35,200 nt of DNA from a virus (UHGV-0097760), one strand, 5' to 3'; shown: positions 3,319-28,154, counted from the stretch's first letter. Notes: generated by a model not told the origin, from the sequence alone. Made by a program: numbers and translations.

Positions 3319-3590
3319 GTATTCGTATTGAAATTGGCGAACGTTATGTCGTTACCAGTGACAGCTTTCAGTTTATTCTTCACGAGAAAAAGAGAGCGGA
3401 AAGCGGTAAAAACGCCGGTCAGGAATGGCTGGCGGTGGTTGGTTATTATCCGAAATTAAGCCAGCTCGTTTCCGGCCTGATGCATCACGATATTCTGACC
3501 GGAAGCGCAAAGTCTTTTGCTGATTTAAACGCGCAGGTTGAGCAACTCAGCAAGCGTTGTTCAGAGGCTTTTGGCTCATATGGCCGTTAA
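3315..3590 (+). CDS. Early hypothetical protein (P2 orf83-like, 91 aa)
   Basis: Synteny and length match. Confidence 0.65.
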   Translation: MSIRIEIGERYVVTSDSFQFILHEKKRAESGKNAGQEWLAVVGYYPKLSQLVSGLMHHDILTGSAKSFADLNAQVEQLSKRCSEAFGSYGR

Positions 3591-5859
3591 AGCCTCCGGG
3601 CATTTTGTCCCTCCGTCAGCATTTGCTGCAGGCACCGGTAAGGCGTTTACCGGTGCTTATGCATGGAACGCGCCACGCGAGGCTGTCGGGCGCGAAAGAC
3701 CCCTTACACGTGACGAGATGCGTCAGGTGCAAGGTGTTTTATCCACGATTAACCGCCTGCCTTACTTTTTGCGCTCGCTGTTTACGTCACGCTATGACTA
3801 CATCCGGCGCAATAAAAGCCCGGTGCACGGGTTTTATTTCCTCACATCCACTTTTCAGCGTCGTTTATGGCCGCGCATTGAGCGTGTGAATCAGCGCCAT
3901 GAAATGAACACCGACGCGTCGATGCTGTTTCTGGCTGAGCGTGACCACTATGCGCGCCTGCCGGGAATGAATGACAAGGAGCTGAAAAAGTTTGCCGCCC
4001 GTATCTCATCGCAGCTTTTCATGATGTATGAGGAACTCAGCGATGCCTGGGTGGATGCGCATGGCGAAAAAGAATCGCTGTTTACGGATGAGGCGCAGGC
4101 TCACCTCTATGGTCATGTTGCTGGCGCTGCACGTGCTTTCAATATTTCCCCTCTCTACTGGAAAAAATACCGTAAAGGACAGATGACCACGAGGCAGGCA
4201 TATTCTGCCATTGCCCGTCTGTTTAACGATGAGTGGTGGATTAGTCAGCTTAAAGGCCAGCGTATGCGCTGGCATGAGGCGTTACTGATTGCTGTCGGGG
4301 AGGTCAATAAAGACCGTTCTCCTTATGCCAGTAAACATGCCATTCGTGATGTGCGTGCACGCCGCCAGGCAAATCTGGAATTTCTAAAATCGTGTGATCT
4401 CGAAAACAGGGAAACAGGCGAGCGCATCGACCTTATCAGTAAGGTGATGGGCAGTATTTCTAATCCTGAAATTCGCCGGATGGAGCTGATGAACACCATT
4501 GCCGGTATTGAGCGTTACGCCGCCGCAGAAGGTGATGTGGGGATGTTTATCACGCTGACCGCGCCGTCAAAGTATCACCCGACACGTCAGGTTGGAAAAG
4601 GCGAAAGTAAAACCGTCCAGCTAAATCACGGCTGGAACGATGAGGCATTTAATCCAAAGGATGCGCAGCGTTATCTCTGCCGTATCTGGAGCCTGATGCG
4701 CACGGCATTCAAGGATAATGATTTACAGGTCTACGGTTTGCGAGTCGTCGAGCCACACCACGACGGAACGCCGCACTGGCATATGATGCTTTTTTGTAAT
4801 CCACGCCAGCGTAACCAGATTATCGAAATCATGCGTCGCTACGCGCTCAAAGAGGATGGCGACGAAAGAGGAGCTGCGCGAAACCGTTTTCAGGCAAAAC
4901 ATCTTAATCGGGGCGGTGCTGCGGGGTATATCGCGAAATACATCTCAAAAAATATCGACGGCTATGCACTGGATGGGCAGCTCGATAACGATACCGGCAG
5001 ACCGCTGAAAGATACTGCCGCGGCTGTTACCGCATGGGCGTCAACGTGGCGCATTCCGCAATTTAAAACGGTTGGCCTGCCGACAATGGGGGCTTACCGT
5101 GAACTACGCAAATTGCCTCGCGGCGTCAGCATTGCTGATGAGTTTGACGAGCGCGTCGAGGCTGCACGCGCCGCCGCAGACAGTGGTGATTTTGCGCTGT
5201 ATATCAGCGCGCAGGGTGGGGCAAATGTCCCGCGCGATTGTCAGACTGTCAGGGTCGCCCGTAGTCCGTCGGATGAAGTTAACGAGTACGAGGAAGAAGT
5301 CGAGAGAGTGGTCGGCATTTACGCGCCGCATCTCGGCGCGCGTCATATTCATATCACCAGAACGACGGACTGGCGCATTGTTCCGAAAGTGCCGGTCGTT
5401 GAGCCTTTGACTTTAAAAAGCGGCATCGCCGCGCCTCGGAGTCCTGTCAATAACTGTGGAAAGCTCACCGGCGGTAATACTTCGTTACCGGCTCCCACGC
5501 CTTCTGAACACGCCGCAGCCGTGCTTAATCTGGCTGATGACGGTGTTATCGAATGGAATGACCCGGATGTCGTGAGGGCGCTCAGGGGCGCATTAAAACA
5601 CGGGCTGAGAACGCCAAATCGTCAACAAAGAAACGGAAGCCCGTTAAAACCGCATGAAATTGCACCATCGGCCAGACTGAGCCGGTCTGAACGATTGCAA
5701 ATCACCCGTATCCGCGTTGACCTTGCTCAGAACGGTATCAGGCCGCAGCGATGGGAGCTTGAGGCGCTGGCGCGTGGCGCGACCGTAAATTATGACGGGA
5801 AAAAATTCACGTATCCGGTCGCTGATGAGTGGCCGGGATTCTGGCATCAATTTGAGTAA
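3580..5859 (+). CDS. A: Replication initiation endonuclease A (rolling-circle initiator); start set at ATG 3580, the ORF-track start at 3538 is a TTG extension
   Basis: 759-aa ORF in A position; HUH-like motif context HHDGTPHWHMMLF and catalytic-Tyr region YIAKYISKN. Confidence 0.85.
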   Translation: MAVKASGHFVPPSAFAAGTGKAFTGAYAWNAPREAVGRERPLTRDEMRQVQGVLSTINRLPYFLRSLFTSRYDYIRRNKSPVHGFYFLTSTFQRRLWPRIERVNQRHEMNTDASMLFLAERDHYARLPGMNDKELKKFAARISSQLFMMYEELSDAWVDAHGEKESLFTDEAQAHLYGHVAGAARAFNISPLYWKKYRKGQMTTRQAYSAIARLFNDEWWISQLKGQRMRWHEALLIAVGEVNKDRSPYASKHAIRDVRARRQANLEFLKSCDLENRETGERIDLISKVMGSISNPEIRRMELMNTIAGIERYAAAEGDVGMFITLTAPSKYHPTRQVGKGESKTVQLNHGWNDEAFNPKDAQRYLCRIWSLMRTAFKDNDLQVYGLRVVEPHHDGTPHWHMMLFCNPRQRNQIIEIMRRYALKEDGDERGAARNRFQAKHLNRGGAAGYIAKYISKNIDGYALDGQLDNDTGRPLKDTAAAVTAWASTWRIPQFKTVGLPTMGAYRELRKLPRGVSIADEFDERVEAARAAADSGDFALYISAQGGANVPRDCQTVRVARSPSDEVNEYEEEVERVVGIYAPHLGARHIHITRTTDWRIVPKVPVVEPLTLKSGIAAPRSPVNNCGKLTGGNTSLPAPTPSEHAAAVLNLADDGVIEWNDPDVVRALRGALKHGLRTPNRQQRNGSPLKPHEIAPSARLSRSERLQITRIRVDLAQNGIRPQRWELEALARGATVNYDGKKFTYPVADEWPGFWHQFE

Positions 5860-5986: not shown

Positions 5987-6178
5987 ATGTTAAAGCCTGC
6001 AGATGTTGTTTGTTTGAAAAGCGGTGGATTTAAAATGACTGTATCTGACTCTACTGAGACTCATGCTAAATGTATTTGGCATGATAAAGAAGGAGTTTTG
6101 CACGAGGAGTCATTCTCCATTGATTTACTGGAAATAGCAGAGAGTAAAAGTGGTATGCTGTGTCGTCCACGTAAGTGA
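5987..6178 (+). CDS. Small DUF2158/YodC-like protein (P2 orf91 position); the alternative TTG start at 5903 would give 91 aa
   Basis: DVVCLKSGGFKMTV motif typical of YodC/DUF2158 small proteins; GGAG RBS at 5977-5980. Confidence 0.6.
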   Translation: MLKPADVVCLKSGGFKMTVSDSTETHAKCIWHDKEGVLHEESFSIDLLEIAESKSGMLCRPRK

Positions 6179-6205
6179 ATCACAATAAAATTCACGGGGG
6201 AAAGT

Positions 6206-6886
6206 ATGAAACAATACAGCGAATTAGAAAACAATGTTAAGAGATTCATTGTTGAGCATGAAAAAGGGATTTCTATTGATGATATTCATCATAAGTTCCG
6301 GATGAAGGATGGTCAGAATCGCAAGATGGCAGATTATCTTATTGATAATAAAAAGATAATTTTGGAGATGAAAAGTCTTTTTTCTGACAGGGTCAAGAAT
6401 GTCAATGATAAATTGAATGAGTTGGTTAAAACTGATAGTTGGCTTGCAAAAAACTGGCATGGTGCTATTCATTTAGAAGAGTTGATAAAAAGACACCCAG
6501 ACTCAAAGCGATTTAGAAATGATATAATGAACTTTGCTTATGAAAATATTAAAACAAAGGTAGTTAAAGAAGCTAATAAGCAAATAAATGCAACAAAGGA
6601 TGTTTTGGATTTAAATGACTCGATTGGCGGATTGATTTTGTTAAATGATAATGTCTTTTCACATGAGTTTAATTATTTGTCAGATGAAATATTATATTTG
6701 CTAGGCACAAAGAGATATTCGAGTGTTGAGTTTGTGGTTTATATTGCAAAATTGATTGATAAACAGGTTGATGTTTGTGTGCTACTTGACAGTCAATCTA
6801 AAAATAAAAATTATATTGAATGGTATATGAATAATGTTTTTTTGTTGAACTGGGCGTCTTTTAATAAATATGCAATAAAGATGTAG
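6206..6886 (+). CDS. Hypothetical protein, 226 aa, AT-rich cargo gene at the P2 tin position; function unknown
   Basis: Clean ORF with RBS GGGGGA upstream, 27 nt after the DUF2158 gene; no motif recognised by eye. Confidence 0.6.
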   Translation: MKQYSELENNVKRFIVEHEKGISIDDIHHKFRMKDGQNRKMADYLIDNKKIILEMKSLFSDRVKNVNDKLNELVKTDSWLAKNWHGAIHLEELIKRHPDSKRFRNDIMNFAYENIKTKVVKEANKQINATKDVLDLNDSIGGLILLNDNVFSHEFNYLSDEILYLLGTKRYSSVEFVVYIAKLIDKQVDVCVLLDSQSKNKNYIEWYMNNVFLLNWASFNKYAIKM

Positions 6887-6980
6887 TGGTGTGGATGGAT
6901 ATGAAATGAGTCAACCAAGATGCACCTTGGTCAGTAATCTCATGTGAGATACCACATATAACACCAAAAGTGTCAGGTTG

Positions 6981-7133
6981 ATGGCCATTGTTCACCGTTT
7001 ACAGCAGATTATGGTCAACGAAAATCTGACGCCCGATGAGCTAGTCGGGTGTGCCGAAATAGTCAGGGATAATTACGAACAGCTTAACTATATCGGTCAG
7101 TCCAGCCTTGCGCCGCCACCACGCAGACGATAG
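6981..7133 (+). CDS. Short ORF (50 aa from ATG), possibly a gene remnant, ending 4 nt before a hairpin
   Basis: Below the ORF-track cut-off; found by manual translation; GC content higher than the flanking cargo. Confidence 0.25.
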   Translation: MAIVHRLQQIMVNENLTPDELVGCAEIVRDNYEQLNYIGQSSLAPPPRRR

Positions 7134-7137
7134 AGAA

Positions 7138-7176
7138 CCCCGCCAGCAATGAAACATGTTTTCAGTGCTGGCGGGG
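7138..7176. terminator. Hairpin between convergent genes (11-bp perfect stem CCCCGCCAGCA / TGCTGGCGGGG)
   Basis: Perfect inverted repeat with 17-nt loop; weak T-tract, so bidirectional terminator function is inferred. Confidence 0.5.
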
Positions 7177-7206
7177 TTGAACAACGAACGAAGTGAGGCG
7201 TTAGCA

Positions 7207-8148
7207 TTAAGTTAATTTTAATGAATGGTACTCTCGTGAGTTGACCGAAGATTTGAGATAACCGCAATCATTAACCGACAGTATTGCCGCTAATAGGCGA
7301 CAAACGAGTTTCTGCATTTGCAGTAATATATCGTTACCATATTGATTGTTGTTAACACTGGAAAAACCAAGTGGTTGGCCAAAAAAAATAGCCTCATGAA
7401 AATTATCATTGCGGATGCCAGAAATGTTTTTTTTGCCTGATACCCATGTGGGGATTGATAACCCATAAATTCTGCACATCCACTTTAATCGCTTGGAATG
7501 ATTTGGCTGGGTTTTATCAGGAGCCTTGTCATGCTCAGCCCACGATAAAGCAAAGCAACCATCAAGTGCCATGTAAAGGTACTGGAATTTTTCAAAAGGA
7601 AGGTATTGTGGGTTTTGAGATAAGAATAGCGCATGCACCACTGCCGCAATTCTTTTGGGGGAGTGCGCATCCTTTTGTTTGTTAGTTATATAATTAAGAG
7701 CCAGTTCTATGACTTCTTTTTCAGAGCATCCAACGAGAATAAAATCGGTTAACTTAGTGGGCTTGATAGTGGTTGCATCAAGAAAACCAGCGTCAGTGGT
7801 TGTCAATCTTATACCCTTGAAAAAAGAGAGGCACCACACAACAAAGTTGAGAGTTTCTAACGAGGATGTGTTTTTTAATTTTAGTGTGTGCGTTTTGGGC
7901 ATGCCGAATACTCGGTAACTATAAGGCATTGTGCATGAGTCACCATTAAGGTTATATACCTTTCGATTCCCAGGGTATATCCAACCATTAACAACGTTTT
8001 TATCATTGTTAATACGTTCCACTTTCTCAATAAGACCGGGTAAAGTACGCAAAGAAAATTGTTCAGTCTCAATGTTAACTTCTACTGGATAGTATCCAAA
8101 CTCCGAAATAATCTCATTTGGTTGCTGTTCGTCAACTTCGCCTTGCAT
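7207..8148 (-). CDS. Hypothetical protein, 313 aa, AT-rich cargo gene adjacent to cos; possible HEPN-type (RNxxxH) nuclease motif
   Basis: Minus-strand ORF; motif GIRNDNFHEA near C-terminus matches the Rx4H HEPN signature; otherwise unrecognised. Confidence 0.6.
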   Translation of the reverse strand: MQGEVDEQQPNEIISEFGYYPVEVNIETEQFSLRTLPGLIEKVERINNDKNVVNGWIYPGNRKVYNLNGDSCTMPYSYRVFGMPKTHTLKLKNTSSLETLNFVVWCLSFFKGIRLTTTDAGFLDATTIKPTKLTDFILVGCSEKEVIELALNYITNKQKDAHSPKRIAAVVHALFLSQNPQYLPFEKFQYLYMALDGCFALSWAEHDKAPDKTQPNHSKRLKWMCRIYGLSIPTWVSGKKNISGIRNDNFHEAIFFGQPLGFSSVNNNQYGNDILLQMQKLVCRLLAAILSVNDCGYLKSSVNSREYHSLKLT

Positions 8149-8384
8149 AACTTTCTCCGTTCAAAAACAGGCACGATAATTCTCGTAAGCCTATCATGTT
8201 CGCAAAGTATCCATACCTGTGGATTTTGTAAATTTAAGTTGGTTTGTCATTAAATAAGCCGTTGCATGCAACAAGTGAATGTTTTTGCATGCGTCGGGGA
8301 TGTCCGTTCAGGCTGCGTGCGGTCAGGACTGGTGCGGATCCATAGTATCTATGCAACTGCATTAAAACCGCCCCATGAAGCGGG

Positions 8385-8574: not shown

Positions 8575-9609
8575 TCAGCCGTTGTCAGTGTCCAGTGAGT
8601 AGTTTTTAAAGCGGATGACCTCCTGACCGAGCCAGCCGTTTATTTCCCGAATCCTGTCCTGTAACGGGATAAGCTCATTGCGGACAAAGACCTTTGCCAC
8701 TTTCTCAATATCACCCAGCGACCCGACGTTCTCCGGCTTGCCGCCCATCAACTGAAAGGGGATGCGGTGCGCGTCCAGCAGGTCAGCGGCGCTGGCTTTT
8801 TTGATATTAAAAAAATCGTCCTTCGTCGCCACTTCACTGAGCGGGATAATTTTAATGCCGTCGGCTTTCCCCTGTGGTGCATAGAGAAACAGATTTTTAA
8901 AGTTGTTGCGGCCTTTCGACTTCACCATGTTTTCGCGGAGCATTTCGATATCGTTGCGATCCTGCACGGCATCAGTGACGTACATGATGTATCCGGCATG
9001 TGCGCCGTTTTCGTAATACTTGCGGCGGAACAGCGTGGCCGACTCATTCAGCCAGGCAGAGTTAAGGGCGCTGAGATATTCCGGCAGGCCGTACAGCTCC
9101 TGATTAATATCCGGCTCCAGCAGGTGAAACACGGAGCCGGGCGTGAAAGGTGTCGGCTCGTTGAAGGACGGCACCCACCAGTAAACATCCTCCTCCACAC
9201 CACGGCGGGTATATTTTGCCGGTGAGGTTTCCAGTCTGATGACCTTACCGGTGGTGCTGTATCGCTTTTCCAGAAACGCATTACCGAACACCAGAAAATC
9301 CAGCACAAAGCGGCTGAAATCCTGCTGGGAAAGCCACGGATGCGGGATAAATGTCGAGGCCAGAATATTACGTTTGACGTAAATCGGTGAGCTGTGATGC
9401 ACGGCAGCACGCAGGCTTTTTGCCAGACCGGTAAAGCTGACCGGTGGCTCATACCATCTGCCGTTACTGATGCACTCGACGTAATCCAGAATGTCACGGC
9501 GGTCGAGTACCGGCACCGGCTCACCAAAGGTGAATGCCTCCATTTTCGGGGCGCTGGCGGTCATTTTTTTTGCCGCAGGTTGCGGTGTTTTCCCTTTTTT
9601 CTTGCTCAT
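8575..9609 (-). CDS. Q: Portal protein Q (344 aa)
   Basis: Length and synteny identical to P2 Q; adjacent to cos. Confidence 0.9.
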   Translation of the reverse strand: MSKKKGKTPQPAAKKMTASAPKMEAFTFGEPVPVLDRRDILDYVECISNGRWYEPPVSFTGLAKSLRAAVHHSSPIYVKRNILASTFIPHPWLSQQDFSRFVLDFLVFGNAFLEKRYSTTGKVIRLETSPAKYTRRGVEEDVYWWVPSFNEPTPFTPGSVFHLLEPDINQELYGLPEYLSALNSAWLNESATLFRRKYYENGAHAGYIMYVTDAVQDRNDIEMLRENMVKSKGRNNFKNLFLYAPQGKADGIKIIPLSEVATKDDFFNIKKASAADLLDAHRIPFQLMGGKPENVGSLGDIEKVAKVFVRNELIPLQDRIREINGWLGQEVIRFKNYSLDTDNG

Positions 9610-11381
9610 CAGTAAAACTCCAGAATGGTGGATGTCAGCGGGGTGCTTATACCGGCGGTGAGTGGCTCATTTAACAGGGCGTGCATGGTCGCCCAGGCGA
9701 GGTCGGCGTGGCTGGCTTCCTCGCTGCGGCTGGCCTCATAGGTGGCACTGCGTCCGCTGCTGGTCATGGTCTTGCGGATAGCCATAAACGAGCTGGTGAT
9801 GTCGGTGGCGCTGACGTCATATTCCAGACAGCCACGGCGGATAACGTCTTTTGCCTTGAGCACCATTGCGGTTTTCATTTCCGGCGTGTAGCGGATATCG
9901 CGCGCGGCGGGATAGAACGAGCGCACGAGCTGGAACACGCCGACACCGAGGCCGGTGGCATCAATACCGATGTATTCGACGTTATATTTTTCGGTGAGTT
10001 TGCGGATGGATTCAGCCTGAGTGGCAAAGTCCATGCCTTTCCACTGGTGACGCTCAAGTATTCTGAATTTGCCACCGGCCACCACCGGCGGTGCCAGTAC
10101 CACGCATCCGGCGCTGTCGCCACGGTGTGACGGGTCGTAACCAATCCATACCGGGCGGGAGCCGAACGGATTCGCGGCAAACGGCGCATAGTCTTCCCAT
10201 TCTTCCAGCGTGTCGACCATGCAGCGTTGCAGCTCCTCGAACGGGAACACCGACGCCTTGTCGTCAACAAATTCACACATGAACAGGTTTTTAAAATCGT
10301 CGGCGCTGTTTTCGCGTTTAAGCTGCTCAATGTCGAACAGCGTGCAGCCACCTTTCAGGGCGTCCTCAATGGTGACAATCTGCCGCCACTGGCCGTCCGC
10401 ACAGAGAAGCCCACCGGCAAGGGCGTTATGACTGACGTCGATTTCCACGCGTTCGGCGGCGCTGGCGCGTCCCCGGTTGAACAGTTCACCCGACCAGAAC
10501 GGGTAGGCGTCGTGCGCCAGCGTGGACGGGGTGGAGAAATAGGTCGAGCGCAGGTGACTCTGTGAGGCCATACCTGATGCCACCTTACGCAGTACCTGAA
10601 AATTCGGGATCCAGAAAATCTCGTCGACGTACAGGTCGCCGTTATGGCTCTGTGCGGTGTTGGAGTTGGTGCCGAGAAAAATAAGTTTTGCGCCGTTATT
10701 GCCCAGGACAATCGGGTCACCGGTCAGGTCAACGTCAACCAGCCGGGCAAAGGCGATGATGTATTCGCGGAACACATACGCCTGCGTTTTACTGGCCGAC
10801 AGAAAAATCTGGTTATGACCGGTTTTCAGGGCGCGCAGCAGCGCCTCGCGGGAAAAATAAAACGTCGCGCCAATCTGGCGGGATTTCAGGATATCGCGGA
10901 TGCGGTGCTCAAGCCCGGCGCGATACCAGTGCAACTGATAGTCGAAAGACTGCTCAAAGAAAATCTGCTCCAGCTTTTCGATGGCCTCGTCACTGAAAAA
11001 ATTCTTTTTCGGTTTGCGCCGCCCGCCTTTGTTGCGGTTAGCGACGTTCGGATTAAGGTCTGCCTCGTTGCCGGTCTGGCTGTAGCGGTTGACCCGTGCC
11101 AGTCGTTCAATCTGGCGTCCCAGCAGGTCAATTTCCTTGAAGTCACTGCCGGTTTTCTGCGGTTTGATGATGAGCTGGGTCAGCCGCGCTTCCAGGCTCA
11201 TTTCGACACGGCTGATGGGGGCAACGCTGTCCCAGCCGTCGCGCTGTTTCCAGCTCTGCACCGTCGGGCGTTTCATCTGCAACATGGCGGCAATCTGCGG
11301 CACGGAAAACCCCTGCCAGTACAGCAGCGCCGCCTGACGACGCGGGTCGTGTAAAAGAGTGGTGTCTGTGGTGATGGTCAT
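9609..11381 (-). CDS. P: Terminase large subunit P (590 aa); start set at ATG 11379-11381
   Basis: 590 aa from MTITTDT...; ATPase/nuclease-sized protein between Q and O; length equals P2 P. Confidence 0.9.
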   Translation of the reverse strand: MTITTDTTLLHDPRRQAALLYWQGFSVPQIAAMLQMKRPTVQSWKQRDGWDSVAPISRVEMSLEARLTQLIIKPQKTGSDFKEIDLLGRQIERLARVNRYSQTGNEADLNPNVANRNKGGRRKPKKNFFSDEAIEKLEQIFFEQSFDYQLHWYRAGLEHRIRDILKSRQIGATFYFSREALLRALKTGHNQIFLSASKTQAYVFREYIIAFARLVDVDLTGDPIVLGNNGAKLIFLGTNSNTAQSHNGDLYVDEIFWIPNFQVLRKVASGMASQSHLRSTYFSTPSTLAHDAYPFWSGELFNRGRASAAERVEIDVSHNALAGGLLCADGQWRQIVTIEDALKGGCTLFDIEQLKRENSADDFKNLFMCEFVDDKASVFPFEELQRCMVDTLEEWEDYAPFAANPFGSRPVWIGYDPSHRGDSAGCVVLAPPVVAGGKFRILERHQWKGMDFATQAESIRKLTEKYNVEYIGIDATGLGVGVFQLVRSFYPAARDIRYTPEMKTAMVLKAKDVIRRGCLEYDVSATDITSSFMAIRKTMTSSGRSATYEASRSEEASHADLAWATMHALLNEPLTAGISTPLTSTILEFY

Positions 11382-20247: not shown

Positions 20248-22338
20248 ATGAGCACAAAATTCAAAACCGTTATCACCACTGCCGGTGCAGCAAAGCTGGC
20301 AGCGGCAACCGCACCGGGAGGGCGGAAGGTCAACATTACCACGATGGCCGTCGGGGATGGCGGTGGTAAATTGCCTGTCCCGGATGCCGGACAGACTGGG
20401 CTTATCCACGAAGTCTGGCGACATACGCTGAACAAAATCAGCCAGGACAAACGAAACAGTAATTATGTTATCGCAGAGATGGTTATTCCGCCGGAGGTGG
20501 GCGGTTTCTGGATGCGTGAGCTTGGCCTGTACGATGATGCGGGAACGTTAATTGCCGTGGCGAACATGGCCGAAAGTTATAAGCCAGCTCTTGCCGAAGG
20601 CTCAGGGCGTTCGCAGACCTGTCGCATGGTCATCATCGTCAGCAGTGTGGCCTCGGTGGAGCTGACCATTGACACCACAACGGTGATGGCGACACAGGAT
20701 TACGTTGATGACAAAATTGCAGAGCACGAACAGTCACGACGTCACCCGGACGCCTCGCTGACCGCAAAAGGTTTTACTCAGTTAAGCAGTGCGACCAACA
20801 GCACGTCTGAAACACTGGCCGCAACGCCGAAAGCGGTAAAGGACGCGTATGACCTTGCTAACGGGAAATATACCGCACAGGACGCCACCACAGCGCGAAA
20901 AGGCCTTGTCCAGCTCAGTAGTGCCACCAACAGCACGTCTGAAACGCTCGCCGCAACACCAAAAGCGGTAAAGGCCGCGTATGACCTTGCTAACGGGAAA
21001 TACACTGCACAGGACGCCACCACAGCGCGAAAAGGTCTTGTCCAGCTCAGTAGCGTCACCAACAGCGATTCTGAAACGCTTGCGGCAACGCCAAAGGCGG
21101 TAAAGGCCGCGTATGACCTTGCTAACGGGAAATACACTGCACAGGATGCCACCACGGCGCGAAAAGGGCTTGTCCAGCTCAGTAGCGCCACTAACAGTGA
21201 TTCTGAAACGCTGGCCGCAACACCAAAAGCGGTGAAGTCTGCCTATGACAATGCTGAAAAACGTCTTCAGAAAGATCAGAACGGTGCGGATATTCCGGGA
21301 AAGGATACCTTCACGAAAAATATCGGTGCCTGTCGTGCTTATAGCGGCGCTTTGAGCACTGAAGCCGGAAACTGGACAACCGCTCAGTTTATTGAATGGC
21401 TGGATTCCCGTGGTGCATTTAATCATCCGTACTGGATGTGCAAAGGCTCCTGGTCATATGCAAATAACAAAATCATTACGGATACCGGATGTGGTGATAT
21501 CCACCTGGCTGGTTGTGTCGTCGAGGTCATGGGAACTAAATCTGCAATCACTATCCGAGTGACCACGCCGACAACATCAAGCGGTGGCGGTACAACCAGC
21601 GCACAATTCACTTACATTAATCATGGGGACGCCTACTCCCCCGGCTGGCGTCGTGACTGGAATCGTCAGGGCGACGCAATGACCGGAACGATTAATCAGG
21701 ACGGCGGAAGCCAGAATACCTATATGTCTACGGCCTTATGTTCAGGCACCAGAGGCGGCAAAAAATATCTCAGAAAGTTTCGTGGTGGAGAAGGAGACAC
21801 TATCTGGCATGAAACAGTACAGGGTGGGGTAGTTCGCTGGGCGACTGGTAATACTGATGCTCAGGAAGAATTATCACTCAGCTCCGCTTATGGTCTCCGT
21901 TCAAGAGGTGAGATTACATCACTCAGTGCCAATGGTCTGCGCATTGCTTATGGCAATTATGGATTCTTTATCAGGAATGATGGTGGTAGCACATATTTAA
22001 TGCTGACGGCCTCTGGCGATAAATTTGGAACATGGAACGGTTTAAGACCGCTGACTATCAATAACGCCAATGGCGGAGTGTCAATGGGGCATGGCCTGAG
22101 TGTTACTGGACGTGTTACCCCATCAGATTACGGAAATTTTGATTCCCGCTATGTGAAAGATGTTCGCCTGGGTACGCGTGTTGTTCAGACCATGCAAAAA
22201 GGCGTGATGTATGAGAAATCAGGCCATGTAATTACAGGGCTTGGCATTGTCGGCGAAGTTGATGGCGATGATCCGGCAGTATTCAGACCTATACAAAAAT
22301 ACATTAATGGCACATGGTATAATGTCGCACAGGTGTAA
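20248..22338 (+). CDS. H: Tail fibre protein H (696 aa) with internal 44-aa tandem repeats
   Basis: Conserved N-terminal tail-fibre region, TPKAVK-containing repeats, divergent lower-GC C-terminus; P2 H position. Confidence 0.9.
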   Translation: MSTKFKTVITTAGAAKLAAATAPGGRKVNITTMAVGDGGGKLPVPDAGQTGLIHEVWRHTLNKISQDKRNSNYVIAEMVIPPEVGGFWMRELGLYDDAGTLIAVANMAESYKPALAEGSGRSQTCRMVIIVSSVASVELTIDTTTVMATQDYVDDKIAEHEQSRRHPDASLTAKGFTQLSSATNSTSETLAATPKAVKDAYDLANGKYTAQDATTARKGLVQLSSATNSTSETLAATPKAVKAAYDLANGKYTAQDATTARKGLVQLSSVTNSDSETLAATPKAVKAAYDLANGKYTAQDATTARKGLVQLSSATNSDSETLAATPKAVKSAYDNAEKRLQKDQNGADIPGKDTFTKNIGACRAYSGALSTEAGNWTTAQFIEWLDSRGAFNHPYWMCKGSWSYANNKIITDTGCGDIHLAGCVVEVMGTKSAITIRVTTPTTSSGGGTTSAQFTYINHGDAYSPGWRRDWNRQGDAMTGTINQDGGSQNTYMSTALCSGTRGGKKYLRKFRGGEGDTIWHETVQGGVVRWATGNTDAQEELSLSSAYGLRSRGEITSLSANGLRIAYGNYGFFIRNDGGSTYLMLTASGDKFGTWNGLRPLTINNANGGVSMGHGLSVTGRVTPSDYGNFDSRYVKDVRLGTRVVQTMQKGVMYEKSGHVITGLGIVGEVDGDDPAVFRPIQKYINGTWYNVAQV
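20767..21250 (+). repeat. Tandem coding repeat, about 3.6 copies of a 132-bp (44-aa) unit within the tail fibre gene
   Basis: Repeated peptide KGLVQLSSATNS(T/D)SETLAATPKAVKAAYDLANGKYTAQDATTAR; unit starts at about 20767, 20899, 21031, 21163. Confidence 0.85.
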
Positions 22339-22341
22339 TTT

Positions 22342-22869
22342 ATGCTGCATTTAAAAAATATTACTGCGGGTAATCCCAAAACTGTTGCCCAATATCAACT
22401 GACAAAAAATTTTGATGTTATCTGGTTATGGTCTGAAGACGGAAAAAACTGGTATGAGGAAGTAAGTAATTTTCAGGAAGACACGATAAAGATTGTTTAC
22501 GACGAGAATAATATAATTGTCGGCATCACCAGAGATGCTTCAACGCTTAACCCTGAAGGTTTTAGCGTTGTCGAGGTTCCTGATATTACCGCCAACCGAC
22601 GTGCGGATGACTCAGGTAAATGGATGTTTAAGGATGGTGCCGTGATTAAGCGGATTTATACGACAGACGAACAGCAGCAACTGGCAGAATCACAAAAGGC
22701 AACTTTACTTTCCGAAGCGGAATCCGTGATTTTGCCGCTGGAGCGCGCTGTCAGGCTGAATATGGCAACAGATGAGGAGCGCAGCCGACTGGAAGCATGG
22801 GAACGCTACAGCGTTCTGGTCAGTCGTGTGGATCCTGCAAATCCTGAATGGCCGGAAATGCCGCAATAA
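22342..22869 (+). CDS. G: Tail fibre assembly chaperone G (175 aa)
   Basis: Length and synteny match P2 G; immediately follows H. Confidence 0.85.
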
Positions 22870-23184
22870 GTTGTATGAGCTTACATACCTATAGCACAGA
22901 GTAAAGCCTAATCTGACAGTCCGCTCTGTGCCAAAAAGGGACGTTGCTAGGAGCATTAACCTTTAGTCGAAATGTGGTGTGAAAAAGAAAAACAGAATAG
23001 TTGTGCCGGACTCAGAATCTTCTGGTCTCGCACATTTACCTTTCTTCAAGTCTATAGGGGAAAGATTTTCAATGACTAATCAATCAGTTTATATAAAACT
23101 CGTGTTTAGATTTTGAGCATTATTTACGATAGGTTTCTCAGGATATTGGCCCCCAGTAAGGGGCCGTCAACCGCTGACTAGCAA

Positions 23185-23778
23185 TTAGTTAATGCGTGTC
23201 AGCTCGTAATGACCTACTGTTTTACGGCTTGTAAAGTAGTTCCCATTTAACACGTCTTTATCATTAAGATTTAGCTTGAGAATAGCTGTGCCCATGTAAG
23301 GATCTTGTGGACCAAAACCTGCCTTATGCTTGGGGGTTGTTAAAAAAACGTAGTAAAGTTCTGGTCGCCCCGTTTCGGTATCCTTTTTAGGCTTAGCCAC
23401 CAATGTCTGAGAATCGGAGTCGTCAGCTTCGACATCCATTCCAATTTTAAGAAAATCCTGCTTTATAGTTGCTTGTGCGTGGGATGTGCCTTTTTTATCT
23501 TCCCATTCCCAATGAATAACCATATCCCAGGTTCCGTTCAAATCAGGGAAGAGTAGGTTATTTAGTTTAGGGAACCATTGCCATAACTTTCGCCACCCAA
23601 AGAAAAAAATTGATATCACAATAGTATTAAGAATAAACAAACCTCCAGATGCAACTGATAGGACTGTCATGAAAGTTGTGTTTTCATCATATATGCCCAA
23701 TAAAATCAGACCGCAGACAGTCGCATAGATAACGGAGATTCTTGAGATTATTTTCCATATTGGGAGAAGGTTTATCAT
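23185..23778 (-). CDS. Two-TM membrane protein with about 135-aa C-terminal soluble domain; candidate membrane-disrupting effector (Cap15 / S-2TMbeta-like architecture)
   Basis: Two hydrophobic helices (about residues 10-30 and 36-62) then a soluble C-terminal domain; ATGA start/stop overlap with upstream gene. Confidence 0.6.
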   Translation of the reverse strand: MINLLPIWKIISRISVIYATVCGLILLGIYDENTTFMTVLSVASGGLFILNTIVISIFFFGWRKLWQWFPKLNNLLFPDLNGTWDMVIHWEWEDKKGTSHAQATIKQDFLKIGMDVEADDSDSQTLVAKPKKDTETGRPELYYVFLTTPKHKAGFGPQDPYMGTAILKLNLNDKDVLNGNYFTSRKTVGHYELTRIN

Positions 23779-24212
23779 TGCAACTCCTCGTAATAAACTT
23801 CTTTACCAGCCTCAAATATAGAAAGACGACCTCTTTCGCCTACAATCCCTGTAAGTTTAATCTCGTCAATGCAAGAGCCATAAAGGGCAGCAACAAAACG
23901 TCCACCGACGAGTCTTGAACTGTCAAAACTGATGTTCTCTATGATTGGTGGTGAGAAATATTGTGCGGTATAAGTAACATTTCCTGCTTCATCTAAGATG
24001 TGAAAGCCATCATGGTATTCGCTATTTTTATTGGAAATTCTTGATAATAATTCTAATGTGGAATCATTCTGTATGGGGTCTATATTCCGAAGACTTGTGA
24101 TGGGAAGGCTATCAGGGTTATTACATATAATAACGCCTATGCCAGAAAAATAAGCACGACTGGATTTTTTCCAAATATCATATAGTAATTTATATAATTT
24201 CTCTTTTGTCAT
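23775..24212 (-). CDS. 145-aa protein with diadenylate-cyclase-like (DAC/DisA_N-like) motif layout; candidate nucleotide signal generator or sensor
   Basis: YHDGFHIL (DGA-like motif) and, 37 residues later, GGRFVAALYGS in the position of the DAC GTRHRAA motif (RHR degenerate to GRF); RBS GGAAG upstream; AT-rich. Confidence 0.5.
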   Translation of the reverse strand: MTKEKLYKLLYDIWKKSSRAYFSGIGVIICNNPDSLPITSLRNIDPIQNDSTLELLSRISNKNSEYHDGFHILDEAGNVTYTAQYFSPPIIENISFDSSRLVGGRFVAALYGSCIDEIKLTGIVGERGRLSIFEAGKEVYYEELQ

Positions 24213-24743
24213 CGTTCATTTCTTCCTGATTTTAGTTATTAACTACAAAAAATCAAACAGTAATATCAATAAAGACGATTATCCAATAATTTTCTTTGCA
24301 ATGGAAGATTTGATAATCAAGTATAAAGATTTGTAGAAACAATGAAATGAGGTTTGACGGCAGGCCTCAGAGCTCGATGCAGTTTTAGCTAACCTCAATA
24401 AAAGGAAGGTGTTCGTTTTTTGCTCAATACTACCCGTCAACTTTGTGCCGCAAGCAGAGGCTGCAAACCTCAGCATATGTAAGTCAATGGGGGATGTTAC
24501 TAATACATTCGACCGAAACACTAAAAATTTCATTACATTTTATTGAGATAGGCATTTGAAATGTTGCAAGAAATGTATAAATAATGTATTTATTCAGAAT
24601 AATCGGGGTTCTGTTCATGGACGAGCCCCAAAAAGCTGATTATACCTAGGCAAGCGTCTGGTTGCTGATAGCTATTATGGCAAAAGAAAGGACTGTTTGT
24701 TGATATAAATGAATAAACATCCGATTTGGTTTAGGGAGTCTGG

Positions 24744-26645
24744 ATGAAGCTAAGAATAAGTAAAATATCATTAAAAAACTTCAAAAGTTTTAAAAATATT
24801 ACTATCGTTCCCAATCCTGATTTTAATATAATCATTGGGGAAAATAGTGCTGGGAAGTCAACTGTTTTTGAAGCTATTCATTTATGGGAGAAATGTTATA
24901 AAACATATATCCTTGCTTCAAGGAAAGGGTTTTATAAAGTTAAGAAGTCAACAAACAGATATGTTAATTATCAAGAGCTGGATTTTTTGCGAATCACAAG
25001 TGATGAGGATCTTTTTCACGACCCAAGAGATCCTAATCTAGGAAAATGCTCTGAAATAACTCTGACATTAAAAAATGAAGAGGAGAATGATAAGAGCTGG
25101 GAGCTTGGATTCAAAGTTACATGCCCAACATCAATCGAAAATGCTTTTTTCCGCGTTCAACCAATAGATGAAAATCAGTTTACTAATTTTGCGGAAGAAT
25201 TTTGTAAAGGAGGGGCATTTTTGGATGAAGCTATCTTTATTTACCAGACGAGACCAGTAGCAGGAGTTCATCAATTTGAGCCGTACTATAATGAGGCTCA
25301 GATTAAGAGAAAAATACAAAAAGGTTATTCACACGAGGTTCTTAGAAACAAAATTATCTCTAAAAGAAAGTCAATATCAGATTTGGAATTAAGCATATCT
25401 GAAATACTTGAGAAAGATGTCAAGTTCAATATTCCTTCGGATGCAAGAAAAAATAAAGATGAATTCATTAAACTTGATGTTTCAATCAATAGTTCAAAAT
25501 ATTATGATCTTCACCTTCAAGGAAGTGGTTTTCTTCAAATTGTGGAAATACTATCTACAGTTGAATTTATTGATGCTCCTCTCAAGTTACTGCTTGTTGA
25601 CGAACCTGACTCACACATCCACACAAAGCTACAACATAATCTTCTCGCCCATTTAAAAAAAATAGATCACAATCAGTTTTTTATTATCAGTCATAACGAT
25701 CAATTTGTGACCAGCGCAGGAGAAGGTGAAGTATTCTTCCTAAACGAAGACGCTAAATTAAGTGGTCACCTAGAAGCAATCAACCCAAATAGTTTCGATA
25801 TTATAAAAAACTCATTGGGGGGGGTAATTTTATCTCTCGAGAGACTTAATAATGCAAAACTAATCGCATTTGTTGAAGGTGAGGACGATGAAAAATATCT
25901 AAAGAAACTTAACCAAAAGATCAAAGAAATTACTAACCCAATTGGTTGTTTGAAAAATGTAGTTTTCTTTCCGTTACGAGGAAAAGATAATATTCTCCAA
26001 AAGGTTGAGTATAATAAGAGAACTTTAAATTCGATTCTAAATGGCAAATCGTGGTATGTTATTTTTGATCGGGATTTTTCTACAGACACTGTTGATCATT
26101 ATCTTAAGGAAAATATTACTAAGAAACGGTTCACTCCATATAGTCATGTGGGGTATTGTATTGAGTCAGTGTTATTTTCGGATCTGAGTATTTTTAAAAA
26201 GTATTTGTATTCCTTGGCTCCATTTATTGCTGAAGACGAATTTTCAACACACATTGATACCTTAATTGATGAATTAAAGGATTCTGTCAATAATTTAACC
26301 TCCTCACTAAACAAAGAAATAGAGGCTAGATTCAATAGTCAAAAGAAAAACCGACCAGAATTTGCTAATCTTAATTTTGTGGATGTCGTTAGATCATGGT
26401 GCGAAGATGGAGTATTCAAACCTGAGCGAGTAATGTCAAAACCTCTTATCCAAAAGTTTGTTACAGATCTGGAAAATAAAATAGGTGTTTCTCTCTTCCT
26501 GCGAGAATCAAATGTAGATGAAGAAGTAGCATCAAAGTTATTATTTAAATACTTTGACTTCATTCAGACAATTGATGATTTGTATCCATCATTTCGAGAC
26601 TTGATGAAACAGCTAGATGTGCTGCCAAGAAATGAAGTTGAATAA
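24744..26645 (+). CDS. OLD-family nuclease: N-terminal ABC-type ATPase plus C-terminal Toprim domain (P2 Old / PARIS AriA-AriB-fusion-like), 633 aa
   Basis: Walker A GENSAGKST, Walker B LLLVDEPDSHIH, H-loop FIISHND; Toprim-like AFVEGEDDEKYL and DxD (VIFDRDFS); RBS GGGAG. Confidence 0.75.
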   Translation: MKLRISKISLKNFKSFKNITIVPNPDFNIIIGENSAGKSTVFEAIHLWEKCYKTYILASRKGFYKVKKSTNRYVNYQELDFLRITSDEDLFHDPRDPNLGKCSEITLTLKNEEENDKSWELGFKVTCPTSIENAFFRVQPIDENQFTNFAEEFCKGGAFLDEAIFIYQTRPVAGVHQFEPYYNEAQIKRKIQKGYSHEVLRNKIISKRKSISDLELSISEILEKDVKFNIPSDARKNKDEFIKLDVSINSSKYYDLHLQGSGFLQIVEILSTVEFIDAPLKLLLVDEPDSHIHTKLQHNLLAHLKKIDHNQFFIISHNDQFVTSAGEGEVFFLNEDAKLSGHLEAINPNSFDIIKNSLGGVILSLERLNNAKLIAFVEGEDDEKYLKKLNQKIKEITNPIGCLKNVVFFPLRGKDNILQKVEYNKRTLNSILNGKSWYVIFDRDFSTDTVDHYLKENITKKRFTPYSHVGYCIESVLFSDLSIFKKYLYSLAPFIAEDEFSTHIDTLIDELKDSVNNLTSSLNKEIEARFNSQKKNRPEFANLNFVDVVRSWCEDGVFKPERVMSKPLIQKFVTDLENKIGVSLFLRESNVDEEVASKLLFKYFDFIQTIDDLYPSFRDLMKQLDVLPRNEVE

Positions 26646-26837
26646 TATTATCGCGTTTCAAAATATAGAACGGTGGGTAAGGTAATGAATGACAAAATAC
26701 ACATTGAATCGCCACGAACCAAGCAATAAGCATATCAACTCAGCCCTTATGGGCTGATGATCTGTTCCTCGCTCAAAGCAAGCTTTCAGATTTGATAACA
26801 AATTGTCAGTTGGAAACTGAGTGAGTACAAATCAAGG

Positions 26838-26866
26838 CAGGCGGGCTGATTGCCCGCCTTTTCTTT
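26838..26866 (+). terminator. Rho-independent terminator-like hairpin (AGGCGGGC-TGATT-GCCCGCCT followed by TTTCTTT)
   Basis: 8-bp GC-rich stem, 5-nt loop, T-rich tail; lies between the cargo gene and the FI late operon. Confidence 0.6.
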
Positions 26867-26963
26867 ATCTGTTGTTTCATCCACTGACCAGTCAGGTCAA
26901 ATAGCGTCTCATGCACTGCCCAACAGAAAATACCACTCACCCATTAACCACGGAGTTAAACGG

Positions 26964-28154
26964 ATGAGTGACTATCATCATGGCGTGCAGGTGCTGGAGA
27001 TTAACGACGGCACCCGCGTCATTTCCACCGTATCCACCGCCATTGTCGGCATGGTCTGCACGGCCAGCGATGCGGATGCGGAAATCTTCCCCCTCAATAA
27101 ACCGGTGCTGATTACCAATGTGCAGAGCGCAATTGCAAAGGCCGGTAAAAAAGGCACGCTGGCGGCGTCGCTGCAGGCCATCGCCGACCAGTCAAAACCG
27201 GTCACCGTTGTTGTGCGCGTGGAAGACGGCACCGGCGACGACGAGGAAACGAAACTTGCGCAGACCGTTTCCAATATCATCGGCACCACCGACGAAAACG
27301 GTCAGTACACCGGACTGAAAGCCCTGCTGGCGGCGGAGTCAGTAACCGGTGTTAAACCGCGTATTCTCGGCGTGCCGGGACTGGACACCAAAGAGGTGGC
27401 TGTTGCATTGGCATCAGTCTGTCAGAAGCTGCGCGCTTTCGGATATATCAGCGCATGGGGCTGTAAGACCATTTCCGAGGTGAAAGCCTACCGCCAGAAT
27501 TTCAGCCAGCGTGAACTGATGGTTATCTGGCCGGATTTCCTCGCATGGGATACGGTCACCAGTACCACCGCCACCGCGTATGCCACCGCCCGTGCGCTGG
27601 GTCTGCGTGCCAAAATCGACCAGGAGCAGGGCTGGCATAAAACGCTGTCCAACGTTGGGGTAAACGGTGTTACCGGCATCAGCGCATCTGTATTCTGGGA
27701 TTTGCAGGAGTCCGGCACCGATGCTGACCTGCTTAACGAGTCAGGCGTCACAACGCTGATTCGCCGTGACGGTTTCCGCTTCTGGGGTAACCGTACCTGC
27801 TCTGATGACCCGCTGTTCCTCTTTGAAAACTACACCCGCACCGCGCAGGTGCTGGCCGACACGATGGCTGAGGCGCATATGTGGGCGGTGGATAAGCCCA
27901 TCACAGCAACGCTGATTCGCGACATCGTTGACGGCATCAATGCCAAATTCCGTGAGCTGAAAACAAACGGCTATATCGTGGATGCGACCTGCTGGTTCAG
28001 CGAAGAATCCAACGATGCGGAAACCCTCAAGGCCGGAAAACTGTATATCGACTACGACTATACACCGGTGCCTCCTCTTGAAAACCTGACCCTGCGCCAG
28101 CGTATTACCGATAAATACCTGGCAAATCTGGTCACTTCGGTTAACAGCAATTAA
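26964..28154 (+). CDS. FI: Tail sheath protein FI (396 aa); start set at ATG 26964
   Basis: 396 aa from MSDYHHGVQV...; length equals P2 FI. Confidence 0.9.
   Translation: MSDYHHGVQVLEINDGTRVISTVSTAIVGMVCTASDADAEIFPLNKPVLITNVQSAIAKAGKKGTLAASLQAIADQSKPVTVVVRVEDGTGDDEETKLAQTVSNIIGTTDENGQYTGLKALLAAESVTGVKPRILGVPGLDTKEVAVALASVCQKLRAFGYISAWGCKTISEVKAYRQNFSQRELMVIWPDFLAWDTVTSTTATAYATARALGLRAKIDQEQGWHKTLSNVGVNGVTGISASVFWDLQESGTDADLLNESGVTTLIRRDGFRFWGNRTCSDDPLFLFENYTRTAQVLADTMAEAHMWAVDKPITATLIRDIVDGINAKFRELKTNGYIVDATCWFSEESNDAETLKAGKLYIDYDYTPVPPLENLTLRQRITDKYLANLVTSVNSN

Follow-up and report, generated by a model that had tools for sequence, protein, structure and literature searches.

The stretch of DNA analysed here (UHGV-0097760; the window, 35,200 nucleotides long, with positions counted from its first letter) is a complete P2-like prophage of Escherichia coli that carries, on its minus strand and in an AT-rich cargo island, two translationally coupled genes, the synthase gene coming first. 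This gene encodes a 145-aa protein with the predicted fold of a diadenylate cyclase (DAC), and the second one encodes a 197-aa Cap15-type S-2TMbeta effector. As judged from sequence comparison, the two genes are the two-gene-for-two-gene counterpart of the Rhizobium etli operon behind the deposited structure 'Panoptoo PanS synthase'; the pair belongs to a family already named, and the finding is thus real and not new. By analogy with the Panoptes system, the pair might well work as a guard in which a decoy nucleotide holds the effector in check.

A DAC-fold protein and a Cap15-type effector

Both open reading frames (ORFs) are real genes and not chance ones, because homologues of each (72 for the 145-aa and 119 for the 197-aa protein, at E ≤ 1e-3 in a database search) were found across several phyla. 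The homologues of the 145-aa protein, nearly all of them 143-150 aa long, come from E. coli, Morganella, Serratia, Kosakonia, Pantoea, Pectobacterium and Yersinia, from Vibrio, Shewanella and Microbulbifer, and from many metagenomes; several are named 'diadenylate cyclase' by NCBI and some have a precomputed match to PF02457. For the window protein itself, the sole relevant match in Pfam was to DAC (PF02457; E 3.6e-5, 23.8 bits, profile positions 27-118 of 119), and PADLOC-DB v2, NCBIfam and PHROGs gave no match. The AlphaFold2 (AF2) model, built from 32 family sequences, reached a predicted local distance difference test score (pLDDT) of 94.3 and a predicted template modelling (TM) score of 0.90. 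When this model was compared with the PDB by Foldseek, the best 50 matches were all diadenylate cyclases (DacM, CdaA, DacA, CdaM, DisA), with a probability of 1.0 and TM-scores of 0.58-0.69. As a prediction from a structural model, the DAC fold of the 145-aa protein is solid.

The register of the catalytic motifs (Table 1) was taken from an hhalign alignment to the CdaA sequence of 6hvl, which was verified against the PDB; the probability of this alignment was only 11%, and the register is consistent with the fold match. A C-terminal sub-profile, made to force the alignment of the CdaA residues, lost the CdaA match. In this register the Ala of the DGA motif is replaced by Phe, Y85 is aligned to Y187 of CdaA and R105 to R203, the full G-block reads G103-G104-R105-F-V-A-A from nucleotide 23906, and 37 residues separate D68 from R105. 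The likeness to canonical DACs (CdaA/DacA, DisA, CdaM) covers the overall fold, the H-D-G, the Tyr and the first Arg, whereas identity is about 20-25%. Members of the 145-aa family lack both a membrane anchor and regulatory domains, and they are found in Proteobacteria, which normally have no signalling by cyclic di-AMP (c-di-AMP). Further motifs (F-x-G-x-G, HDGFH, QYFSPP and GGR) are invariant within the family and peculiar to it, and the window protein carries 22 of the 22 family-invariant residues. Among DAC-fold proteins the family forms a separate, minimal branch; the 145-aa protein is a borderline member of Pfam DAC, since its fold agrees and its score and motifs do so only in part.

The downstream protein is a Cap15-type S-2TMbeta effector. 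It matches Pfam Cap15_CD_rec with E 8.4e-20 (71.7 bits against a cut-off of 31.2) and 17 PADLOC models of the CBASS (cyclic oligonucleotide-based antiphage signalling system) '2TM effector', the best being PDLC00704 'Effector 2TM' with E 3.1e-31. Kyte-Doolittle means over 19 residues reach 1.7-2.1 only in the two N-terminal segments listed in Table 1, and the AF2 model (pLDDT 85) places helices at residues 5-29 and 36-68, followed by a beta-barrel region with pLDDT of about 90-96. This barrel was matched by Foldseek to Yersinia Cap15 (7n34) with E 6.5e-7, a target TM-score of 0.87 and a root-mean-square deviation of 2.2 Å. The family profile of the effector matches the same structure by sequence (E 9.6e-10); a single-sequence phmmer search of the effector against the PDB returned nothing meaningful, so that the family profile was needed. 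Compared across the same genome pairs, the effector is consistently more conserved than the synthase: in Vibrio, Microbulbifer and Endobugula its identity to the E. coli protein is about 60-65%, and that of the synthase about 50%.

PDB entry 37jy, a six-chain structure of a 147-aa protein deposited as 'Panoptoo PanS synthase', is matched by the profile built from the 145-aa family with E 5e-46, and in a pairwise comparison the window protein is 41% identical to it over residues 6-142 (E 5e-38). This entry is a very recent deposit, since it is absent from the Foldseek copy of the PDB with releases to 8 April 2026. The crystallised PanS is WP_155249473.1 of R. etli, from the conjugative plasmid pRetMIM1e, and its locus was traced via an 87%-identical relative and a plasmid collection. 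There, PanS is followed by a 198-aa 'hypothetical protein' which matches Pfam Cap15_CD_rec (E 5e-19) and is 39% identical to the window effector (E 9e-49), and after the pair comes a complete type II CBASS (phospholipase activated by cyclic GMP-AMP (cGAMP), cGAMP synthase, ThiF/Cap2 and JAB/Cap3). The two operons share gene order, the 4-nt overlap, full-length homology of both genes and the family-invariant residues; on these points, which can be read from the sequences, the window pair falls within the PanS/Cap15-like ('Panoptoo') family. They differ in that the window copy is prophage cargo with no CBASS in the window, whereas the R. etli copy lies on a plasmid and adjoins the type II CBASS.

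Pairing and CBASS linkage across the family

In a survey of one genome per species, covering 100,044 species, 47 loci of the family were found in Gamma-, Alpha- and Betaproteobacteria, Bacteroidota, Acidobacteria and others. A Cap15-like gene lies directly downstream on the same strand in 43 of them. The four unpaired loci leave the pattern of obligate pairing unbroken: one is on a contig that ends 78 bp past the gene, and the other three are the most divergent sequences. Among the 34 cleanly called loci, the two genes overlap by 4 nt in 26 and abut directly in 8, and the small upstream genes of the loci that were inspected individually are family members with E 1e-47 to 1e-54.

Linkage to CBASS is strong. 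With neighbourhood profiles seeded from the CBASS genes of previously examined loci, a cGAS/DncV-like nucleotidyltransferase (CD-NTase) was found at ≤10 kb in at least 31 of the 47 loci, mostly as part of a type II CBASS immediately adjoining the pair; one further locus has Cap2/Cap3 at a contig edge, and 16 have no CD-NTase nearby. The pair stands beside CBASS in an Oleiphilaceae metagenome-assembled genome (MAG), where Gabija follows, in Pseudomonas, Dyella and Ciceribacter, and on a Sphingobacteriales-type contig. It is found alone, with no CBASS alongside, in the window and in Serratia, Microbulbifer, Klebsiella and Cedecea. In Serratia it lies in the chromosome beside a SIR2 gene, and besides Microbulbifer it is also present on a P4-like or primase-bearing viral contig. 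The short overlap of the two genes was seen at each locus looked up individually. Since it also occurs without a nearby CD-NTase, the pair is autonomous. The adjoining CBASS operons that were checked carry their own effector, a patatin or a 2TM-SAVED protein (in four of the four SAVED-type neighbours checked, with patatin in many others). These effectors, and the fact that the pair also stands alone, led to the rejection of the idea that the Cap15-like gene merely serves the CBASS next to it as effector. A 217-aa gene inside a CBASS neighbouring the pair (L007) had been suspected to encode a DAC and does not.

The receptor domain is not always joined to membrane helices. In a Mesorhizobium MAG (L034, 10417-12636) and in a Rhizobiales locus (L054, 10413-11855), the gene after PanS encodes an N-terminal Cap15_CD_rec fused to PNP_UDP_1, a nucleoside phosphorylase domain that replaces the two transmembrane helices, which suggests a ligand-controlled receptor with interchangeable outputs.

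Two further variants were observed at the margins of the survey. A second, weaker Cap15-like gene (effector profile E 1e-15 to 1e-17; no Pfam match at E 1e-3) lies directly upstream of PanS in the Sphingomonas loci L028, L030 and L031 (9174-9965) and in L059 (78-452). Such three-gene, plus-strand operons run divergently from a CdnX-Cap2-Cap3 CBASS in which no other effector is obvious; the copy ahead of PanS may serve this CBASS as effector, the copy behind it being the partner of PanS. The most divergent DAC-like proteins (L062, 5811-7402; L063, 8793-10513) are 29-34% identical to the window protein and have no Cap15-like partner; their genes are coupled to a class IV aminotransferase gene and lie beside a gene for a flavin mononucleotide (FMN)-dependent dehydrogenase or a BenE transporter. 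These apparently represent a separate metabolic use of a minimal DAC-like domain, at the edge of the family.

These findings confirm, on every structural point, the initial annotation of the window, made from its letters, which had described two minus-strand ORFs of 145 and 197 aa coupled in ATGA within an AT-rich island at the Z/fun position of P2, the motif order and spacing of a DAC in a DAC-like upstream protein, a two-transmembrane (2TM) effector of the Cap15/S-2TMbeta type, and the pair as a candidate defence unit. The upstream assignment is borne out by the sub-threshold Pfam match together with the Foldseek result, and the conserved pairing in defence contexts fits the last of these proposals.

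Prophage setting and other cargo

The island comprises the minus-strand pair and a divergent plus-strand gene for a 633-aa protein, and, the gene order being P2-like, its place between tail genes G and FI is the Z/fun position of P2. The guanine-plus-cytosine (GC) content drops to 0.31-0.41 over 23001-27000, between the tail-fibre assembly and tail sheath genes, versus 0.55-0.60 in the flanking tail genes. The pair is opposite in strand to the late genes, and a host peptidase U32 gene marks the right end of the window.

Table 1. Positions of the features discussed, in the window unless otherwise indicated
Feature	Position	Strand	Remark
Integrase gene	1-1014	minus	
Replication gene A	3538-5859		followed by portal and terminase, capsid, lysis and tail genes
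LysA, LysB, LysC	about 15.4-16.7 kb		P2 lysis cassette
Tail fibre gene	20248-22338		
Tail-fibre assembly gene	22342-22869		Caudo_TAP
Effector gene	23185..23778	minus	197-aa Cap15-type S-2TMbeta protein
C-terminal beta-barrel of effector	23194..23550	minus	aa 77-195, eight-stranded; predicted cyclic-dinucleotide receptor (AF2)
Two N-terminal transmembrane helices of effector	23593..23754	minus	aa 9-30 and 36-62 (Kyte-Doolittle)
ATGA stop/start overlap	23775-23778	minus	translational coupling; context gcaATGAtaaac
PanS-like gene	23775..24212	minus	145-aa soluble bare DAC-fold domain, no sensor domain
G103-G104-R105-F106-V107	23892..23906	minus	on G201-T202-R203-H204-R205 of CdaA
H67-D68-G69	24006..24014	minus	invariant in family; on H170-D171-G172 (DGA motif) of Listeria CdaA
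AT-rich intergenic region	24213..24743		between the pair and the divergent 633-aa gene
633-aa protein gene	24744-26645	plus	divergent from the pair
Tail sheath gene	26850-28154		
R. etli plasmid locus (L065), PanS	9001-9444		
R. etli plasmid locus (L065), partner gene	9441-10037		198-aa 'hypothetical protein'; 4-nt overlap with PanS

The promoter of the pair should lie within the intergenic region that separates it from the divergent gene. An AGGAAG at 24227-24222 stands 9 nt ahead of the first ATG of the 145-aa gene, and one sigma-70-like match is found on the minus strand at 24256-24229 (9 of 12 positions); the scan of the whole region gave 5 sigma-70-like matches versus 6.4 expected from shuffled sequence. 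In the terminator scan, matches at the locus were no commoner than in shuffles. A 6-bp, all-GC hairpin (GGCCCC-TTACT-GGGGCC) was noted at 23149-23165, between the convergent ends of the tail-fibre assembly and effector genes; it is followed by no T-run on either strand and was not reported by the terminator scan. In public data, the exact 145-aa protein is encoded on 82 contigs and the exact 197-aa protein on 102, and a megablast search of the locus found no match in complete RefSeq E. coli genomes or in a phage collection.

The 633-aa protein combines an N-terminal ATPase of the ABC/SMC type (AAA_15/AAA_21/AAA_23) with a C-terminal DUF4435. It matches the PADLOC model AriAB, a fused PARIS (phage anti-restriction-induced system), with E 4.5e-19, the NsnB, PtuA and GajA ATPase models as well, and phrog_9802 with E 1.5e-133, and is probably a single-chain PARIS-like system. 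Known PARIS systems are triggered by the anti-restriction protein Ocr. A functional link between this gene and the pair was considered and rejected, as the two accompany each other in E. coli P2 loci only.

A second AT-rich island (6000-8200, GC 0.31-0.35) lies between gene A and the portal gene Q, at the position of the tin/old hotspot of P2. Its two ORFs, at 6206-6886 (plus strand, 226 aa) and 7207-8148 (minus strand, 313 aa), have no match in Pfam or PADLOC and match one PHROG of unknown function each (phrog_20483 and phrog_5937); they are candidates for uncharacterised cargo or defence genes. At 20700-21300, the tail fibre gene encodes a repeat unit of about 43 aa (…LSSATNSxSETLAATPKAVKxAYDLANGKYTAQDATTARKGLVQ…) that is present in four tandem copies, and these repeats also yield long spurious ORFs on the opposite strand. 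Between otherwise near-identical prophages the tail fibre is 78% identical, and the host-range region is therefore exchanged independently of the cargo.

A proposed Panoptes-like guard and its rivals

In Panoptes, a sensor-less mCpol constitutively makes decoys of the c-di-AMP type that block oligomerisation of a 2TMbeta effector, and the effector is unleashed once the decoy is removed by sponges or phosphodiesterases that phages direct against CBASS (PMC12657230, PMC12657218). It has been reported that SMODS systems are present in the same genome for 53% of mCpol systems and immediately adjacent in about half of these cases, and that the CBASS typically found beside mCpol has a ubiquitin-like module and patatin or S-2TMbeta effectors (PMC12657218). 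The pair described here resembles Panoptes type I (mCpol/OptS with 2TMbeta/OptE) in that a minimal, sensor-less synthase is followed by an S-2TMbeta effector, in how strongly its neighbourhoods are linked to CBASS, above all to type II systems whose effectors are patatin or 2TM proteins, and in the c-di-AMP-type decoy ligand that we propose. It differs in the synthase, which is a palm/GGDEF-like mCpol in Panoptes and has a DAC fold here; in Pfam, mCpol gave no match in the 145-aa protein and DAC alone was returned.

By analogy, we think it reasonably probable that the pair is a self-contained anti-phage module acting as a Panoptes-like guard, with an effector that would be held by a decoy and released when this decoy is depleted. 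As cargo of a P2-like prophage, at its G/FI (Z/fun) hotspot, the two genes would be expressed in the lysogen, and the sensor-less PanS would constitutively make an adenine-containing, c-di-AMP-like cyclic dinucleotide that is presumably not otherwise produced in E. coli. The beta-barrel of the effector would bind this nucleotide and stay inactive, as the 2TMbeta effector does with the product of mCpol. An infecting phage with Acb2-type sponges or Acb1-type phosphodiesterases would then deplete the decoy, the freed effector might oligomerise in the inner membrane, and the cell would die or arrest before phage release. The module would thereby guard cyclic-nucleotide immunity by CBASS against the counter-defence of phages. 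From the DAC fold, the product of PanS is expected to be 3',3'-linked, unlike the 2',3'-c-di-AMP of Panoptes, and the ligand of the effector is probably inhibitory instead of activating, unlike that of Cap15 in CBASS. This direction of signalling, which we infer, is favoured because the CBASS adjacency of the PanS family matches the pattern reported for Panoptes (PMC12657218), because PanS consists of a catalytic domain only, like mCpol, and because the name 'Panoptoo' chosen by the depositors points the same way.

Several observations weigh against a guard. Its logic rests on a name, on analogy and on gene neighbourhoods, and a literature search found no publication on 'Panoptoo', the system being known by the name of a deposited molecule. 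In CBASS, Cap15 is reportedly activated and not inhibited by its ligand. The CD-NTase, Cap2, Cap3 and patatin profiles match nothing in the window, and the Pfam DAC score of the 145-aa protein is under the gathering score of 27. Moreover, of the RHR motif only the first Arg is left (Phe or Tyr stands in place of H204, and a hydrophobic residue in place of R205), and the family position that corresponds to the metal-binding E224 of CdaA is variable; neither activity nor the canonical c-di-AMP product can therefore be assumed. Finally, the DAC of CBASS-DAC makes an activating signal (PMC13069673).

Some of these points can be brought together in a joint reading that we put forward tentatively and hold to be rather doubtful. 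The decoy would be something other than canonical 3',3'-c-di-AMP, since the RHR motif is degenerate and the conserved metal-binding Glu is lost; the pair would be a free-standing trap which, without an adjacent CBASS, would catch any superinfecting phage bearing cyclic-nucleotide sponges or phosphodiesterases; and the island, with its AriAB-like gene, would be given over to sensing the counter-defence proteins of phages.

The initial annotation had appealed to the logic of CBASS, Pycsar and Panoptes alike. The inverted logic of Panoptes appears preferable, on analogy, to an activation of the CBASS or Pycsar type, and the accompanying remark on the lack of a validated defence system with a DAC-fold generator is outdated, since 37jy has been solved and CBASS-DAC (DS-2, PMC13092281; Liu-DS2, PMC13069673), in work of 2025-2026, is a validated defence with a DAC-domain enzyme. 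CBASS-DAC likewise uses a DAC enzyme against phages and is linked to CBASS, and its signal is degraded by Acb1; its DAC, which defence requires, is the only one validated to date in an activating role. CBASS-DAC differs in being a three-gene operon (patatin, cGAS, DAC) with a phospholipase effector and an activating signal, and neither patatin nor cGAS was found in the window; the DAC of DS-2, 581 aa long, comprises a DisA linker and DACNG/DACNH sensor domains, whereas the window PanS has no extra domain within its 145 aa. It is nevertheless conceivable that infection activates the DAC-fold enzyme of the pair, whose product would activate the effector and abort infection by membrane disruption, as Cap15 is ligand-activated in CBASS (structures 7n34/7n35) and CBASS-DAC is an example of a defence activated by the signal of a DAC. 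We regard such positive signalling, the main rival of the guard, as unlikely: PanS has no domain beyond its catalytic core with which to sense infection, in contrast to the large sensor domains of the CBASS-DAC cyclase, the near-constant siting beside complete CBASS operons is that reported for the Panoptes guard, and the depositors named the system after Panoptes. With CBASS systems using Cap15 the pair shares the architecture of the effector and the fold of its barrel receptor; it differs from them in that no CD-NTase is present in the pair or the window, neither protein has a SMODS match, and the generator is unrelated to cGAS/DncV.

The degenerate RHR motif (G-R-F/Y), the lack of conservation at the E224 equivalent and the sub-threshold Pfam score would also fit an inactive PanS. 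It would be a nucleotide-binding or protein antitoxin, sensitive to signals of CBASS or to phage factors, by which the membrane toxin is restrained directly. Toxin-antitoxin operons have a similar overlap and a similar order of genes, with the toxin second. Such a role of PanS seems improbable, given that the H-D-G and the first Arg are invariant even in distant members, that the PDB entry calls the protein a synthase, and that the effector retains an intact Cap15-type nucleotide-receptor barrel; the reuse of this receptor domain with another output domain argues for a diffusible ligand. A role outside defence is hardly to be expected at all. NCBI names homologues 'diadenylate cyclase', which could point to housekeeping c-di-AMP signalling, and a prophage gene for a small membrane protein with two TM helices, such as the second of the pair, might belong to a holin/antiholin-like pair for lysis or superinfection exclusion. 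The family, however, is rare and patchy among the species surveyed, it is found in prophage hotspots, plasmids and defence islands with CBASS, Gabija and SIR2 genes among its neighbours, the P2 lysis cassette lies elsewhere in the window, and the pair, opposite in strand to the late genes, is conserved outside phages.

What is new here is the copy borne by an E. coli prophage beside a PARIS-like gene, mis-annotated or unannotated in public records, where the two genes of the pair are now labelled 'diadenylate cyclase' and 'hypothetical protein'. Temperate phages thus carry a PanS/Cap15-like module in a known defence hotspot of P2. The decoy-nucleotide guard established for Panoptes probably has a second, separate origin, in which the Cap15-type effector is the same and the synthase has an unrelated fold, DAC instead of mCpol. 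The pair is a natural, compact (1 kb) and clonable example from E. coli, a tractable host, which may be used to ask whether c-di-AMP-like molecules are inhibitory immune signals in Proteobacteria.

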